NCBI GenBank assembly: GCA_001768515.1
Contig: MEOA01000020.1
Span: 5,873 to 69,872, forward strand
From: Bacteroidetes bacterium GWE2_42_24
GTDB taxonomy: Bacteria; Bacteroidota; Bacteroidia; Bacteroidales; TTA-H9
Direction of reading: 5' to 3'
DNA: 64,000 nucleotides
Of the stretch, positions 2,327 to 63,412 are shown piece after piece. The position numbers and the translations under genes were made by a program. Under the pieces are notes generated by a model. That model was not told where the DNA came from. It searched no databases and saw only the letters and a list, made by a program, of their open reading frames with translations. Positions within the stretch are counted from its first letter, which is position 1, and each line of letters opens with the position of its first letter.

Positions 2327-3841
2327 TTAGAATATCGCATCTGCAAGGCTCGATTCAAGCATTTCAATCAGGTCAGGATAATGGTTCCATACCTGCATAC
2401 AGTTGTTGAAATAGTCAATTGCTTCCTGTTTGTCTGGTGTATCATACTCTTCTTCTGTATCGGTGGTCAGGTATAGTGCAATTTTTGGATTTGTCTTAAT
2501 CGCTTTTTCTATTGAAGCTTCGATTGACTTTTCATCAGCTCCGGTAAGTCTTTCGTAAATGATCCAATGGTAGGAAGCGGCATCCCTGTTGAGTTGTTTT
2601 AGTTTGTCGAATTCAGGCTGAAATCGTTTAAAGTCGTGTGTGTGCAAGTATAATAGCGGAAGCAATAGTTGGTGGTCGGGTTCGCATTTTTCATCGGTCC
2701 ATTTCAACAAGTATTCAGTGCATATAATAGCTTTATTATACAGCCCGAGTTCGTACAGAATAACCGATAGATCGCGCCAGACATCCAGCAGGTCGTAAAT
2801 CAGGGGCTCGTCATAAATACTATTATCGACTGTTCCATCAGGATCGAGGCTGATTTTCTGGCAGATGAGCTTTTCAACCCGACGCAGCATCCTTACCTTT
2901 TCGGCAGATTCGGCAAATAGCGACATGAGCAGAATATTGGCAATATTATCGGGTGAAATTCTGGAAATCTGGTCGGCTAATTCCTTCATCGACAGGTAAT
3001 GGCTCAGGTATGCTTTGCCAAGAAGAAGGTCGGCTTTGTCGTTAGTTGTCAATTTACTAAAACTAGCTGATTTAATGTCAATTGGTCCGTTTGTCCAGTT
3101 ATTGATAATTAATTGGGCCCGTTCATTATGCTTCGCATTATTAATGTTCTCAAGCAGGCGATCCCGAAGGCTGAAATACAAATCAACAAGATTCGTCAAC
3201 GCGAAGTCTTTTCCCAGCCGTTCAACCAGACTGTTTTCTTCATCCAAAAATCTATTTTGTTGGTCTATGGCTTCGATCAGAATTGATGTAAACAATTTGG
3301 AAATCTCATCGTGATGAACATCGGTAAACCATTTATCAACCTCAGCGCTTGCATCACTCAAATCTGCTTTTTCGGCTTTGGAAACCCGTGGTATCTCTTC
3401 TTCGAAATCAGGATACTGTATCGGGTTGTCATATTGACTTGTAAGTATCCGGGGGTATTTGCCTACCGGCATTTCATCACTTATTTCTATAAGCCTGATT
3501 TCAAACCACCAGCGGTCTTCATAATCATACAGCATGAACCATGTATCTCCGGTACTTCTGAACAAGCGATCGATCAGGTTTCTTTTTACATCCTTCAGTT
3601 TTGGAATGGCTAATTTTGTTGCTGACTTTTCAAATTTAGGCTTGGCCTGATCGTCTTTTTCGTTGTAAAATGAAAAAGAATTTTCATTGTCAAAATCAAA
3701 TGAGTTTAAAATGGCCAGGGTCATTTGATATATGCTTAAATGTGTCGGAACGAGCAAGGTGCGGTAAGGAAGTTGTTCAGGGGTGGCAATGTCAGAACCC
3801 AGACAGGTAGCTTTAAGGTGAAGAAGCTTGGAGGTATTCAT
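2327..3841 (-). CDS. pRiA4b ORF-3-like (PF07929-like) N-terminal domain protein with a long helical C-terminal region
   Basis: 504-aa ORF. The N-terminus (LHLKATCLG...YRTLLVPTHLSIYQMTLAILNSFDFDNENSFSFY ... GDTWFMLYDYEDRWWFEIRLIEI) matches my recollection of the family pattern (YDfGD-W-h-I block). The remainder is helix-rich and TPR-like. Confidence 0.5.
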   Translation of the reverse strand: MNTSKLLHLKATCLGSDIATPEQLPYRTLLVPTHLSIYQMTLAILNSFDFDNENSFSFYNEKDDQAKPKFEKSATKLAIPKLKDVKRNLIDRLFRSTGDTWFMLYDYEDRWWFEIRLIEISDEMPVGKYPRILTSQYDNPIQYPDFEEEIPRVSKAEKADLSDASAEVDKWFTDVHHDEISKLFTSILIEAIDQQNRFLDEENSLVERLGKDFALTNLVDLYFSLRDRLLENINNAKHNERAQLIINNWTNGPIDIKSASFSKLTTNDKADLLLGKAYLSHYLSMKELADQISRISPDNIANILLMSLFAESAEKVRMLRRVEKLICQKISLDPDGTVDNSIYDEPLIYDLLDVWRDLSVILYELGLYNKAIICTEYLLKWTDEKCEPDHQLLLPLLYLHTHDFKRFQPEFDKLKQLNRDAASYHWIIYERLTGADEKSIEASIEKAIKTNPKIALYLTTDTEEEYDTPDKQEAIDYFNNCMQVWNHYPDLIEMLESSLADAIF

Positions 3842-5821: not shown

Positions 5822-5999
5822 GGCATATCGATTTGTATGATGTTAATGGAATAAAGTTAATCAGATGCTGACTGGTGCTAACCTTTAATTGATTATCCGG
5901 GTGTCTGGTATGATTATTTGCCGGGTAATAATATTTAATGGCTATCCGGTCATTACCCGTTCGTTAGATGTGTTATCCATGATCTTTAGAAAAGAACAA

Positions 6000-6200
6000 T
6001 TCTTACACCCGTGTAATACCAAAGACAGGGTTCATCCGATACTACTTCGTTTTGGTTTCGTGATAGCACGAACGCGTTACGAAGCGACTTCGAAGCGACT
6101 TCGAAGCGATGATATGTTTGATCACTGTCTGTCAATGGTTTGGCAATTTCATGTATTGTTTTAGAATAATGTGGGTTTTTGGAAGCATTTGAGCTCATGC
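6000..6200 (-). repeat. Non-coding repeat 'element A', copy 1 (inverted relative to copy 2 at 63197-63412)
   Basis: The reverse complement aligns with 63197-63412. Shared blocks are cattattcta, atatcatcg, gcttcgaag repeats, tcacgaaacca.aacgaag and accctg....t.t.acac.gg. It contains 11-nt tandem units cgaagcgactt at 6080-6110. Confidence 0.75.
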
Positions 6201-6996
6201 TAACGTTTGTTTTCGAGCAATTATTCCCCAATTAGTTTAGAACTATGCCCAGAGAATTTGTGTTGATTTATGAATTGTAGTCTTCTTTATGTGATAACCA
6301 ATACCCTCAAATTTCCCTTATCTTTCCTCCCATAATAGGATTGAGTCACATGCCTGATATTTAAAATCATCCAGCAATTTTAAATCAACTTTATAATTAA
6401 AGCATTTCTTTCCTGATGGAAATATTTTTTTCAAATTCTATTTTGTGCATTCTGAAATTTCAGTCAACAAAATGTAGAATTATTCCAGGCCAAAGTCAGA
6501 TGCCCTATTTGCTATTTAATCGATGAAGGAAATAATATTTTGATTTCTGACTTTCGGTGGATGGAACAAGGTCTTTATCGGTAGATGATAATTAGTTTGA
6601 TTATTAGATTATTGGTGATTTGTGATTTTGTTGTTAAGCCCTAAATCCACTAATTGTTTTTGGATAATGCTCAATTCTGATTCTTAACCTATTCATTACC
6701 AACAGTCAGCTCCTTTTGTCTCGAGGTAGATCATCAGGAAGGCAGGTATGGCAAAAATATAAGGATTAGGGGATTTCTACGATTCAGAAGCTAAGTGAAA
6801 AGGGAGCGGTGTTACTCACTGGTAACATTCTTTATTCTGTGTGCAAAATTGAGCACCATACTCCCGATGACTATCATGAAATACCAATACCAAAGCTGAT
6901 ACCAATTCCGATAGCTATTGTGAAAAGCCAACGTTTGTGTAATGATTTGTTGAGCCGGTACGACAGGTATGGCTTTCTTTTGCGGCAGAGCTCAGC

Positions 6997-7719
6997 CTAT
7001 TGATTTTTATCAATCAGGGTGAAGATCATTGGCAGATCACTGGCAGTGATGATATTGAGGATGGGCAGTTCGGGGCGACCGGTTTTAGTGACAATGACGG
7101 CTTGCAGACTTCCTCCGTCACGAAGTTGTGCTTTGAAGAGTTCGTAGACATCGTGTAGTCGTGATCTGGAATTGACGATAGCGTATTTTTCTTTAATGGC
7201 CCAGGGGAGAACTTGTTCAATATTGGCAGTTTTCAGTTCGTCGAGTTGGGAAATGGATGATGAAAGCCATCGGGCAATCGACCGTGCAGTCAGTAGCCCA
7301 ATAATCCTGTTACCGTCAACAATTGGGCAGCGGGTGAAGTCGTTTTTACCGAAGGTGATGAGGGTTTCCTTTACCGAAGCCTGCTTTGTGATTCTAAAAA
7401 TATCTCGATGAGGCAGGTTGGCGATTGAAGGGGGATTGAGGATAAGGTCTCTGATCCGGCAGATTTCTTCAACAATGTCGGGGTGAGGCTCTGCAATCAC
7501 GAAGTTTTCCCTTCGGTTATGAACAATGGCATTGCGAAGTTCAGCATATTCCCGTAAGTCGGCACCAAAACGTTTTATCACACTGTCAGTTGACTGCATA
7601 CGACGGATCAGTTCAGCAAAACCGACATGAAAGCCGGGTCTGAAGCGTTCATTCAGTACCTGTTCAATCTGATTAAAGGCATCCAGAAATTTATCCGAAT
7701 TTATAGTGTTTGTATACAT
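6997..7719 (-). CDS. HEPN-like (R-x4-H) N-terminal domain fused to a CBS pair
   Basis: The ORF is open to 7923, but the first plausible ATG before the conserved part is at 7719 (MYTNTINSDKF...). The helical N-domain carries AELRNAIVHN, with R at 7534-7536 and H at 7519-7521. Two CBS-like units follow: IFRITKQASVKETL...CPIVDGNRIIGLLTARSI and AIVNSRSRLHDVYELF...AVIVTKTG...ILNIITASDL. Confidence 0.6.
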   Translation of the reverse strand: MYTNTINSDKFLDAFNQIEQVLNERFRPGFHVGFAELIRRMQSTDSVIKRFGADLREYAELRNAIVHNRRENFVIAEPHPDIVEEICRIRDLILNPPSIANLPHRDIFRITKQASVKETLITFGKNDFTRCPIVDGNRIIGLLTARSIARWLSSSISQLDELKTANIEQVLPWAIKEKYAIVNSRSRLHDVYELFKAQLRDGGSLQAVIVTKTGRPELPILNIITASDLPMIFTLIDKNQ

Positions 7720-8016
7720 GCGGAGGTTCAGGTTGGAAATACAGTTAGGATTAATAAAATCAGTGCGTTGTGCTATTTTGACTTCGGTGGCAGAAGGTAG
7801 AAAAAGATAAATAGACAGGTGTTCATGTTTATTTACCGGTAAGTGACAAAAATACTTGTTTTTTGCTGCATCTGCTATTAATTTCACCACATCATCAGTC
7901 GATGTTGAAAGATATCGGCACACAACAGATAGTAAGGTTGCATTATTGTCGGAGAAAACATTTATGTGGAGAGAACAGCCCGATGGGTTTTGTTCATCTG
8001 GCCGCCGACAATTCGA

Positions 8017-8055
8017 AAAAGTCCCCGGGGTTTACCTCCGGGGACTTTTAGTTTT
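8017..8055. terminator. Bidirectional rho-independent terminator-like hairpin
   Basis: The stem aaaagtccccgg / ccggggactttt (8017-8028 and 8038-8049) is followed by a T-run on the plus strand (8051-8056). On the minus strand it is followed by ttttt. Confidence 0.6.
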
Positions 8056-8151: not shown

Positions 8152-8286
8152 TTAGCTCTCATGACCGTCGATAAAACGGTAGGAACCGTCTTCCTGTTCC
8201 TCAGCCAGTGGTGCATTCCTCAGCTCATAAATTATGCTTCCGGCAAAAGCCCCTATCAAAAAAATGGCAATCACTAAATTAATCAT
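8152..8286 (-). CDS. Possible small membrane peptide (44 aa), below the ORF-track cutoff
   Basis: My own translation gives MINLVIAIFLIGAFAGSIIYELRNAPLAEEQEDGSYRFIDGHES. It has one hydrophobic helix followed by an acidic tail. A GGAGG lies 8 nt upstream of the ATG, and two terminators follow. Confidence 0.3.
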   Translation of the reverse strand: MINLVIAIFLIGAFAGSIIYELRNAPLAEEQEDGSYRFIDGHES

Positions 8287-8310
8287 ACTTGCCTCCACAA
8301 AAGGTAGTTT

Positions 8311-8490
8311 TTAACGATTTCCCGATCGCACTCCAAGGTTAATAATCTTCCTTAAGCCTTCAGTTTGTTTTCGGTCAAATTCCTGTTCAGAGTTCTTTTT
8401 TACATTGGATGTTTGATTTTCAGTTTTATCTGCTTCGCAACATCTCTTCTGAAAGACAAAAAGGAGTTCGTTAACCGAATGAATAGACAT
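8311..8490 (-). CDS. Possible small hydrophilic protein (59 aa), below the ORF-track cutoff
   Basis: My own translation gives MSIHSVNELLFVFQKRCCEADKTENQTSNVKKNSEQEFDRKQTEGLRKIINLGVRSGNR. Its stop lies 24 nt upstream of the 44-aa ORF. Confidence 0.25.
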   Translation of the reverse strand: MSIHSVNELLFVFQKRCCEADKTENQTSNVKKNSEQEFDRKQTEGLRKIINLGVRSGNR

Positions 8491-8779: not shown

Positions 8780-10081
8780 TCAGATATTGAAAGCTTGTTT
8801 GAGCTTATCAATATAATCTGTTTTTTCCCAGGCAAAGAAGTTTACTTTTTTGAAATAACGATCAACGCCATCGAGTGACTTGCAAATTGTTTCATGGTTT
8901 TTGTACTTTACTTCCACCTCTGCTTCGTATGGAGTTCGTCCAAAATGGCCATATGCAGCCGAAGGCACAAAGATGGGGTTCCTCAATCCAAAGCGGCTGA
9001 TGATGGCAAAGGGACGGAGATCGAATATTGACAGCATTTTGTCGGCAAGTACTTCGTCGCTTATAACTTCACCTTTTTCATTTGTGGCCTTGCAGGTTCC
9101 ATAGGTGTCGATGAATAATCCAACCGGGCGAGCAATTCCAATGGCATAAGCCACCTGTACGAGAACCTCTTCGCATAAGCCTGCCGCGACCATGTTTTTG
9201 GCGATGTGGCGCATGGCATAAGCTGCAGAACGGTCGACCTTCGAAGAATCTTTTCCTGAGAAGGCTCCTCCGCCATGAGCACCACGTCCACCATAGGTGT
9301 CGACGATAATTTTTCTTCCGGTAAGCCCGGTGTCACCGTGAGGACCTCCAATTACAAATTTTCCGGTAGGGTTTACATAGAGTTTAAAGTTGTCGCCGAA
9401 AAGAACCTGAATTCGTAGAGGTAACAGTGCTTTCACACGTGGAATCAGAATGTGTCTGACATCAGCCTCGATTTTCGCGAGCATTTTTTCATCCTGATCA
9501 AATTCATCGTGCTGGGTTGAGAGCACGATGGTGTCGATGCGGGTCGCCTTCCACCTGTTTTCGTATTCTACGGTAACCTGTGATTTGGAGTCTGGACGCA
9601 GGTAAGTCATCAGTTTTCCTTCTCGTCTGATGGCAGCAAGTTCCTGAACCAACATATGGGCCAGTTCTACAGGCAAAGGCATCAGGTTGTCGGTTTCATT
9701 GCAGGCATAGCCGAACATCATTCCCTGGTCACCTGCACCCATCTCTTCTTCCGTTGCCCTGTCAACACCCTGATTGATGTCGCCTGATTGTTCATGGATG
9801 GTGCTAATTACACCACAAGATTCACTTTCAAAGCGATATTCTCCTTTTGTATAACCAATTTTTTTGATAGCAGAGCGGGCTATATCCTGAATGTCAACAT
9901 AACCATTGGTTCTAACTTCGCCACTGCAAACGGTAAGTCCTGTAGTGACCAGCGTTTCGCAGGCTACTTTAGAATTAGGGTCGTAACGAAGAAATTCGTC
10001 GAGTAAGGAATCTGATATTTGATCGGCCACTTTATCGGGATGGCCTTCCGAAACTGATTCTGATGTGAAAAAGAATCCCAT
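8780..10081 (-). CDS. metK: S-adenosylmethionine synthetase
   Basis: 433-aa ORF with [24 protein letters not shown] and GGGAFSGKD motifs. Collinear with MetK throughout. Confidence 0.95.
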
Positions 10082-10197
10082 GTCGAATTTATTTTAAATG
10101 AATAAATTGTGTGGGAAGATATGAATGAAAATGAACCAGTTTCTGGTTTAGCATTCTTTTTACGTGGTTGCAATCAATCAAATCTGTCCACAGGGTG

Positions 10198-63196: not shown

Positions 63197-63412
63197 GGTA
63201 TGAACCCAAAAATACTTAGAAACCAACATTATTCTACAACAAAAAATAGAATTGCTAAAGTGTTGACAAACAGTGGCCAAATATATCATCGGTTCGTTCA
63301 AGCTTCGAAGTGGCTTCGAAGCGGGTTCGTTGCTTTTTCGTTTTTTCACGAAACCACAACGAAGCAGCACCGAATAGACCCTGACTTTTGTGTAACACAG
63401 GTATAAATACAT
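63197..63412 (+). repeat. Non-coding repeat 'element A', copy 2
   Basis: It aligns with the reverse complement of 6000-6200. It contains four to five 11-nt periodic units (ggttcgttcaa, gcttcgaagtg, gcttcgaagcg, ggttcgttgct) at 63291-63334. Confidence 0.75.

Follow-up and report, generated by a model that had tools for sequence, protein, structure and literature searches.

We analysed a 64,000-nucleotide stretch of DNA from Bacteroidetes bacterium GWE2_42_24 (contig MEOA01000020.1; the whole stretch is called the window below) and found that it carries an intact, single-gene fusion of an N-terminal HEPN-like domain to a C-terminal CBS pair. The protein has an invariant R-N-x3-H motif, and we propose that it may be a homodimeric HEPN ribonuclease (RNase) gated by an adenosyl ligand, a one-gene system that works like the anti-phage protein DS-11. 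We give this reading a probability of about 0.5. The HEPN-CBS design is itself known already, having been predicted in 2013, and its Escherichia coli relative DS-11 was shown to be anti-phage in 2026. What is new here is the reversed order of the two domains, the shorter form of 240 residues and the stable chromosomal setting.

Where does the gene begin? The open reading frame (ORF) at 6997-7923 on the minus strand runs for 308 residues from a GTG and encodes EYAELRNAIVHNRR. Of the 74 proteins found in a homologue search, nearly all have 235-250 residues, and the two closest (85% and 83% identity) have exactly 240 residues and begin at a Met that matches the ATG at 7719. Because the closest homologues start at this Met and because a conserved promoter-like block sits inside the upstream extension of the ORF, we assign the gene to 6997-7719. 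The true start is almost certainly the ATG at 7719. We reject the 308-residue extent adopted in the preliminary description on account of the 240-residue homologues and the presence of the block within the 68-codon extension. Therefore, the residues that were earlier numbered R130 and H135 are R62 and H67, and all numbering below refers to the 240-residue protein unless stated otherwise.

6997-7719, minus strand: HEPN-CBS coding sequence, 240 residues plus a TAG stop at 6997-6999, aligned end to end with its homologues.
7720-7923, minus strand: upstream part of the 308-residue ORF, read as non-coding promoter and 5' leader from the homologue starts and from an upstream DNA alignment with insertions and deletions in which only the promoter block is kept.

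Three features make up the N-terminal half:

7426-7719, minus strand: HEPN-like four-helix domain, residues 1-98, predicted from the AlphaFold model, sub-threshold Pfam HEPN matches and Foldseek template modelling (TM) scores.
7519-7536, minus strand: R-N-A-I-V-H (R62-x4-H67), predicted catalytic motif, invariant and at the end of helix 3.
7651-7668, minus strand: I-E-x-x-L-[RK] (E19-x3-R/K23), second, acidic HEPN motif, from conservation in 42 sequences.

HEPN domains are defined by an R-x4-6-H motif with a polar residue (N, D or H) right after the R, placed at the end of helix 3 before helix 4, and a second motif, Ex3[KR], has also been described in them (PMC3710099). The preliminary description had read AELRNAIVHN as such a signature and had named conservation of the R/H pair as a check, and both points were borne out. 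Across 42 aligned homologues, with identities down to 22%, L61, R62, N63, A64, I65 and H67 never vary. The L, R, N and H of the motif are also invariant in 143 further cluster representatives, in which A and I are kept in at least 90%. R62-N63-A-I-V-H67 has the defining spacing, with the polar N directly after the R. The upstream acidic motif is likewise present: of the 42 sequences, 38 have E and 4 have D at position 19, and 32 have R or K at position 23, where the present protein has N.

Since Foldseek searches of the full-length model against the Protein Data Bank (PDB) gave CBS proteins only, the N-terminal 100 residues were modelled alone. The resulting AlphaFold model (predicted local distance difference test, pLDDT, 86) has helices at 6-26, 34-41, 46-66 and 80-94. 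The motif is predicted to lie at the C-terminal end of helix 3 (46-66/67), followed by a loop at 67-79 and by helix 4 at 80-94, which is the position that the HEPN definition gives. E19 falls in the first helix of this model versus helix 2 in the 2013 survey, and the helix numbering is uncertain. Against the PDB, the isolated domain had no significant Foldseek match; its highest TM-scores, themselves non-significant, all belong to HEPN structures (5yep_C 0.49, 3o10_C 0.47, 7bxo_G 0.47 and 7ae2_A 0.42), versus about 0.35 or below for other helical bundles. Foldseek against the viral BFVD library gave nothing significant. Profile searches of the domain against PDB sequences returned noise, with the HepT structure 6m6w_B at E=0.84 and gone when a shorter profile was used.

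Pfam has no model for the N-terminal domain of this family. When the 143 representatives were scanned singly and the top 25 Pfam families listed, sub-threshold matches to HEPN families recurred: 43 members matched HEPN_RiboL-PSP (best E=5.6e-5), 31 HepT-like, 6 DUF3644 (a HEPN family), 4 HEPN_Cthe2314 and 2 HEPN_Apea. The other listed families were single matches, except CBS and DUF6548, a domain of unknown function (12 members). The HepT-like alignments stop at profile position 93 of 120, opposite the R-x4-H of the HEPN-CBS proteins, and one homologue is named 'Apea-like HEPN domain-containing protein' in UniRef. Altogether, the conserved motifs and the predicted fold support reading the N-terminal half as a HEPN domain, on evidence that is convergent rather than decisive.

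7000-7422, minus strand: CBS pair (Bateman module), residues 100-240, from Pfam, Foldseek, a PDB sequence match and conserved residues.

The preliminary description had placed two CBS motifs after the N-terminal domain, and a tandem CBS pair is what we found. Pfam CBS covers residues 168-221 of the 308-residue ORF (100-153 of the 240 residues) at E=1.1e-7 and 32.5-33 bits versus a cutoff of 24. The second stretch receives no Pfam call in the present protein and is called in several singly scanned homologues. The full-length AlphaFold model (pLDDT 91.6; predicted TM-score, pTM, 0.83) matches the CBS pairs of TTHA0829, AcuB, DarB and YkuL over about 140 columns in Foldseek (E of 1e-6 to 1e-7). 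Its best PDB structural matches also include MJ1225 and the AMPK gamma subunit, and a PDB sequence search found MJ1225 at E=4.7e-13. Conserved positions in the CBS region are F128, P132, T144, T225 (35 of 42 sequences) and D228 (40 of 42). Judged by sequence, T225 and D228 would belong to the usual G-h-h-T-x-x-D ribose-contact motif, and F128, T144, T225 and D228 are residues of the ligand-site type. A short, conserved P96-P97 linker joins the two domains and, together with the high pTM, suggests a fixed geometry between them. The CBS sensors that best match residues 100-240 (TTHA0829, AcuB, DarB/CbpB, YkuL and MJ1225) are of a type that binds adenosine mono-, di- or triphosphate (AMP, ADP, ATP), diadenosine tetraphosphate (Ap4A), cyclic di-AMP (c-di-AMP) or S-adenosylmethionine (SAM), and none of them has a HEPN domain.

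How does the protein compare with HEPN-CBS fusions described before? A survey published in 2013 predicted a nucleotide-sensing role for such fusions, together with control of RNA stability, and filed an entry 'CBS and HD (alr3009), active' under Swt1-like HEPN fusions (Anantharaman et al. 2013, PMC3710099). By their published description, these Swt1-like examples (alr3009; gi 118580987 of Pelobacter propionicus) unite both domain types in a single bacterial protein, given there as catalytically 'active'; they occur with or without HD, and the present protein has no HD domain. DS-11 (DefensePredictor system 11; E. coli WP_000257686.1) is a one-protein CBS and HEPN anti-phage system of 365 residues (Science 2026, PMC13092281), modelled in NCBIfam as NF053863, 'CBS domain-containing anti-phage protein' (an equivalog model). 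Its defence is lost with Y157A in the CBS region and with R330A or H335A in the HEPN domain, and AlphaFold3 predicts a dimer with ATP bound (PMC13092281). Its authors obtained a Swt1-like result from HHpred and noted that defence genes can sit outside defence islands (PMC13092281). The Swt1-like assignment guessed at in the preliminary description agrees with the 2013 filing and with this HHpred result. For the present protein the subfamily is only tentative; HEPN_Swt1 (PF18731) is not among the top 25 Pfam families listed for the window protein or in the family scans.

On paper, the likeness to DS-11 lies in the working logic. Both are single proteins with a CBS pair and a HEPN R-N-x3-H motif (RIIRNDVMH in DS-11, AELRNAIVH here), an I-E-x-x-I/L-R helix opens the HEPN domain in both, and the proposed principle, a CBS-bound adenine derivative regulating a dimeric HEPN nuclease, would be shared. 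With the DS-11 sequence taken from the supplement of PMC13092281, hhalign of our family against DS-11 aligned the CBS pairs at 94% probability (E=9e-8), with F128 opposite Y157 of DS-11; in this comparison only the CBS parts ran colinearly. In the HEPN region, a comparison of single sequences reached E=0.013 near the motif, and a family-to-family hhalign gave P=0.002 over 63 colinear columns with I-E-x-x-x-R and R-N-x3-H in register. The differences are plain: the order is CBS then HEPN in DS-11 and HEPN (R62/H67) then CBS here, and at 240 versus 365 residues the present protein lacks the N-terminal region of about 110 residues found in DS-11. NF053863, whose cutoff is 260 bits, scored 12.9 bits (E=0.043), with a match confined to the CBS region (172-224 of the 308-residue ORF). 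Because of this score, the marginal HEPN similarity and the reversed domain order, we place the protein outside the DS-11 family; the resemblance is one of analogy.

Two other groups of HEPN proteins offer a comparison. The HepT/MntA toxins (SO_3166, 5yep; 7bxo; 7ae2) give the best superpositions of the N-terminal domain (TM 0.42-0.49), and the HepT-like profile can be aligned as far as the R-x4-H. These toxins act as HEPN RNase dimers that have a nucleotidyltransferase (MNT) partner and are regulated by AMPylation or complex formation, whereas the present protein has no MNT partner, no H-x-Y extension and only sub-threshold scores, and its would-be regulator is the fused CBS pair. The CARF-HEPN enzymes (Csm6/Csx1) and RNase L follow the same principle as the one proposed here, a small-nucleotide sensor fused to a dimeric HEPN nuclease. 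Their sensor is a CARF domain or ankyrin repeats, and that of the present protein would be a CBS pair. Neither a CRISPR link nor a signal-producing cyclase was found in the HEPN-CBS neighbourhoods examined (81 loci).

From this domain composition and by analogy with these systems, we infer RNase activity, dimerisation, a ligand with an effect on cleavage, and a biological role. The protein would be small and cytoplasmic, with a minimal HEPN endoribonuclease domain and a C-terminal CBS pair. Its predicted active site consists of R62, N63 and H67, helped by E19. In a homodimer, as in other HEPN RNases, the two R-x4-H motifs would combine into a single active site that needs no metal and whose products carry 2',3'-cyclic phosphate ends. 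The CBS pair would bind an adenosyl ligand (AMP, ADP, ATP, Ap4A, SAM or a cyclic dinucleotide), and binding may shift the relative placement of the two HEPN domains and so turn RNA cleavage on or off. Such a one-gene ligand-gated RNase would need no antitoxin and would be analogous to the CARF-HEPN enzymes and RNase L. The preliminary description had called a ligand-gated HEPN RNase plausible, and that view gains support from the invariant RNxxxH, the E-x3-[RK] motif, the predicted position at the end of helix 3, sub-threshold matches that recur for HEPN families and for almost no others, and the DS-11 precedent.

The family is large and patchily distributed. A profile of the N-terminal domain found 1,701 cluster representatives (clusters at 50% identity) at E<=1e-3, of which 1,105 reach E<=1e-10; nearly all have about 240 residues. 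With one genome per species and a strict motif, confirmed relatives occur in at least 575 of 185,579 species. Hosts include Bacteroidales, Bacillaceae (Oceanobacillus, Virgibacillus and Ornithinibacillus), Clostridia, Gemmatimonadota and Trueperaceae, as well as Chloroflexota, Obscuribacteraceae, Gloeobacterales, Proteobacteria and Verrucomicrobiota. On mobile elements, relatives were found in 4 of 72,556 plasmid records and 3 of 50,697 phage records. The family is annotated as 'CBS domain-containing protein' only. We also observed short versions of 90-190 residues, with the HEPN-like domain alone or with a truncated CBS region, on long contigs (P0235, P0100, P0251, P0279 and L036). In Oceanobacillus sp. 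FSL H7-0719, a 90-residue call overlaps a tblastn match of residues 7-229, which suggests a frameshifted copy. The short versions may be stand-alone forms or products of decay in some lineages.

What surrounds the gene? The preliminary description had seen an accessory patch, and this part of it did not hold. In the window and in relatives at 60-65% protein identity, the same order is kept: rpsI-rplM, an ABC ATPase gene, metK, a 59-residue ORF, a 48-residue ORF, the HEPN-CBS gene, and then genes for a 172-residue lipoprotein, a GH25 muramidase and a PRiA4_ORF3 protein, after which a SNF2-type helicase gene comes next in two relatives (L009 and L010). At 0.45-0.47, the guanine-plus-cytosine (GC) content of the HEPN-CBS gene is the same as in metK and in the ABC-transporter gene. 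No family of PADLOC-DB v2 matched the window protein at E<=10, in a version (2023) that predates DS-11. Among 148 distinct neighbour families, taken from two genes on each side at 81 loci, no PADLOC family was matched by more than one. Strong defence matches among the neighbours are isolated (Cas6, a type I specificity subunit, PDC-M54B and mad5), and at one Cytobacillus locus the gene lies beside TIR and WYL proteins. Because gene order is kept, GC content is host-like and defence neighbours are isolated, we place the HEPN-CBS gene neither in a defence island nor in a patch acquired recently; in this uncultured Bacteroidales bacterium it is an ordinary part of the chromosome.

Across lineages, no neighbour is conserved: after ORFs had been called and all neighbours clustered at the 81 loci, only lineage-specific gene orders were seen. 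miaA, which encodes a tRNA isopentenyltransferase, adjoins the HEPN-CBS gene in 7 Bacteroidales loci, an RNase_T-type DEDD exonuclease gene in 7 Bacillaceae loci and a gene for a tRNA_bind (CsaA-like) protein in 4 loci. A metallo-beta-lactamase (MBL)-fold hydrolase gene adjoins it in most of 11 Bacillaceae/Syntrophomonadaceae loci. RNA-metabolism neighbours in unrelated lineages may point to RNA or tRNA as the substrate, or may be coincidental. PRiA4_ORF3 proteins are encoded 1-2.5 kb from the HEPN-CBS gene in two Bacteroidales gene-order groups (window 2327-3841, minus strand; L007 3298-3825; L009 7646-9148; L010 7525-9027), in a 500-residue form beside the SNF2-type helicase gene (L009 and L010) and a 175-residue form beside miaA.

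Is such an enzyme a defence system or a part of ordinary RNA metabolism? Several observations weigh against our reading. No Pfam HEPN model attains its gathering score in the HEPN-CBS proteins scanned. The comparison with the DS-11 HEPN domain is unstable, and since 1 of 60 block-shuffled controls equalled the score and a larger alignment gave P=0.09, we claim no specific homology to that domain. Finally, the stable gene order and host-like GC content, without recurrent defence neighbours, fit poorly with the defence role of the proposed RNase. By analogy, defence would be favoured by DS-11 as a precedent and by the patchy spread over phyla, and we lean slightly, and tentatively, towards a switch for growth arrest or abortive infection that a disturbance of the nucleotide pool would set off. 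The alternative is that the same ligand-gated HEPN RNase has a physiological role, trimming or degrading cellular RNA, possibly tRNA, according to energy charge or a nucleotide signal. A physiological role is favoured by the order kept beside metK, the ribosomal-protein genes and the ABC transporter, by the host-matching composition, by the rarity on plasmids and phages, by the lack of a recurrent defence family among the neighbours and by the lineage-specific miaA, RNase_T and tRNA_bind adjacencies; it is also the role that the 2013 survey suggested for HEPN domains fused to CBS (PMC3710099). However, presence in so small a share of species over many phyla is a pattern commoner for accessory genes, the only tested protein with both domains is the anti-phage system DS-11, the RNA-gene neighbours vary by lineage and could be coincidental, and the DS-11 authors stress that defence genes occur outside defence islands (PMC13092281). 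On balance, we consider the physiological role possible and only a little less likely than the defensive one. That the reversed-order HEPN-CBS proteins are a widespread, non-immune and vertically kept nucleotide-gated endoribonuclease acting on cellular RNA, possibly tRNA, would explain both the stable gene order and the repeated adjacency to miaA, RNase_T and tRNA-binding genes, and seems unlikely to us.

Other explanations question the catalytic activity or the autonomy of the HEPN-CBS protein. The N-terminal domain might be non-catalytic, making the protein a CBS-type sensor whose helical part binds DNA, RNA or a partner protein. Homologues are named 'predicted transcriptional regulator' in several sources, including a Joint Genome Institute (JGI) label, the helical domain has no significant fold match, and stand-alone CBS-pair proteins such as DarB/CbpB act through binding of partner proteins. 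Some HEPN domains are indeed non-catalytic, but these usually lack the R/N/H signature (PMC3710099), whereas here the invariant R, N and H, with the N following the R, and the E-x3-[RK] motif form the signature of a catalytic HEPN domain. Moreover, a helix-turn-helix match was obtained in only 1 of 143 members (HTH_5, E=0.007), and the model shows helices bundled in up-down fashion rather than a winged helix. We therefore regard a purely binding role as improbable. The characteristic motif of HepT toxins is R-x4-H-x-Y, and the present protein has R-x4-H-N-R instead. This bears on the idea that the protein is a HepT-like toxin whose nucleotidyltransferase antitoxin (MNT/MntA) is encoded elsewhere or has been lost, an idea suggested by HepT-like being the second most frequent sub-threshold Pfam match (31 of 143), by the presence of the HepT structures 5yep, 7bxo and 7ae2 among the best TM-scores and by the weak profile match to 6m6w_B. 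Against it, all PF01934 scores are below the cutoff (best E=2.4e-4 to 8.6e-4; two members reach 11.6-12.7 bits versus 23.5), and with a fused CBS pair no separate regulator would be needed. Across the 81 loci, neither an MNT nor any other conserved partner was found, and the neighbours in the window are small ORFs and a lipoprotein gene. The absence of a conserved partner gene also led us to reject a toxin-antitoxin pair in general, and a HepT-like toxin with a distant or lost antitoxin is very improbable.

Upstream of the coding sequence lie further features, in part brought out by DNA comparison with the relatives' contigs (L009-L011).

7843-7866, minus strand: promoter-like block containing TATTTTTG (7847-7854), from conservation against L009 and L011 and a four-way alignment.
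8017-8049, no strand assigned: GC-rich hairpin terminator between the metK/small-ORF unit and the HEPN-CBS gene, from a terminator scan.
8780-10081, minus strand: metK.

The 24-nucleotide block is 96% identical to L009 and L011, versus about 66-71% in coding DNA, and it is invariant in the four-way alignment while its flanks diverge with insertions and deletions. Bacteroidetes promoters have the -7 consensus TAnnTTTG, and TATTTTTG fits it, so that the block is a predicted promoter-like box. The relatives have a hairpin at the place equivalent to 8017-8049, of other sequence and with compensatory changes. Between this hairpin and the promoter-like box lies a conserved element of about 40 nucleotides (7968-8010, minus strand; GGCGGCCAGA..AA..CCCATCGGG..TTCTCTCC), which is 81-85% identical to the relatives and single-copy within the window. 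It has a predicted stem-loop with three compensatory pair changes across four sequences and no significant match in Rfam, and it could be a regulatory leader or a protein-binding site of the HEPN-CBS gene.

Directly upstream of metK, at 10138-10197 on the minus strand, there is a SAM-II long-loop riboswitch (RF01726; 64.2 bits versus a gathering score of 44, E=4e-11). We considered a functional tie of the HEPN-CBS gene to metK and this riboswitch and rejected it: a terminator and a separate promoter-like box intervene, and distant homologues lie away from metK.

The tiny ORFs noted in the preliminary description are both there, at 8152-8298 (48 residues) and 8311-8490 (59 residues, MSIHSV...FQKRCC...) on the minus strand. 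The 48-residue peptide is 79-81% identical in L009-L011 and 66% in L012, which exceeds the conservation of the HEPN-CBS protein; it contains one transmembrane helix, and its tail reads YELRNAPLAEEQEDGSYRF. The 59-residue peptide is 54% identical in relatives. Neither matches Pfam, and by their conservation the two are real small proteins.

Downstream of the HEPN-CBS gene, the roughly 1.2 kb of non-coding DNA with a repeat element reported earlier was found again as a spacer of 1,175 nucleotides (5822-6996) without convincing ORFs, and nothing else in the surroundings of the gene stands out as unusual. L009-L011 have about 150-180 nucleotides at this position, with no similarity by blastn or tblastx, and the comparison identifies the spacer as a lineage-specific insertion. 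It contains one copy of a two-copy repeat of about 190-230 nucleotides, whose copies lie in opposite orientation in non-coding DNA (6003-6190, plus strand; 63210-63406, minus strand) and are 73% identical by blastn (81% of aligned columns). The first copy includes an 11-nucleotide tandem repeat, CGAAGCGACTT x2.7, at 6080-6109. Rfam matched neither the spacer nor the repeat, which is probably the 'repeat element A' of the preliminary description.

Why would a HEPN nuclease with a CBS pair matter? If the proposed mechanism is true, HEPN nucleases can be switched by small molecules through a CBS pair as well as through CARF domains and ankyrin repeats, and this switch comes as a compact, single-gene form of 240 residues in hundreds of species from many phyla. 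The opposite domain order of DS-11 raises the questions of whether the same ligand gates the reversed, shorter form and whether that form serves immunity or ordinary RNA turnover. If the physiological reading is true, the family would add to bacteria a new class of enzymes in which a metabolite controls RNA decay. A dedicated model of the N-terminal domain would improve the annotation of more than 1,700 protein clusters.

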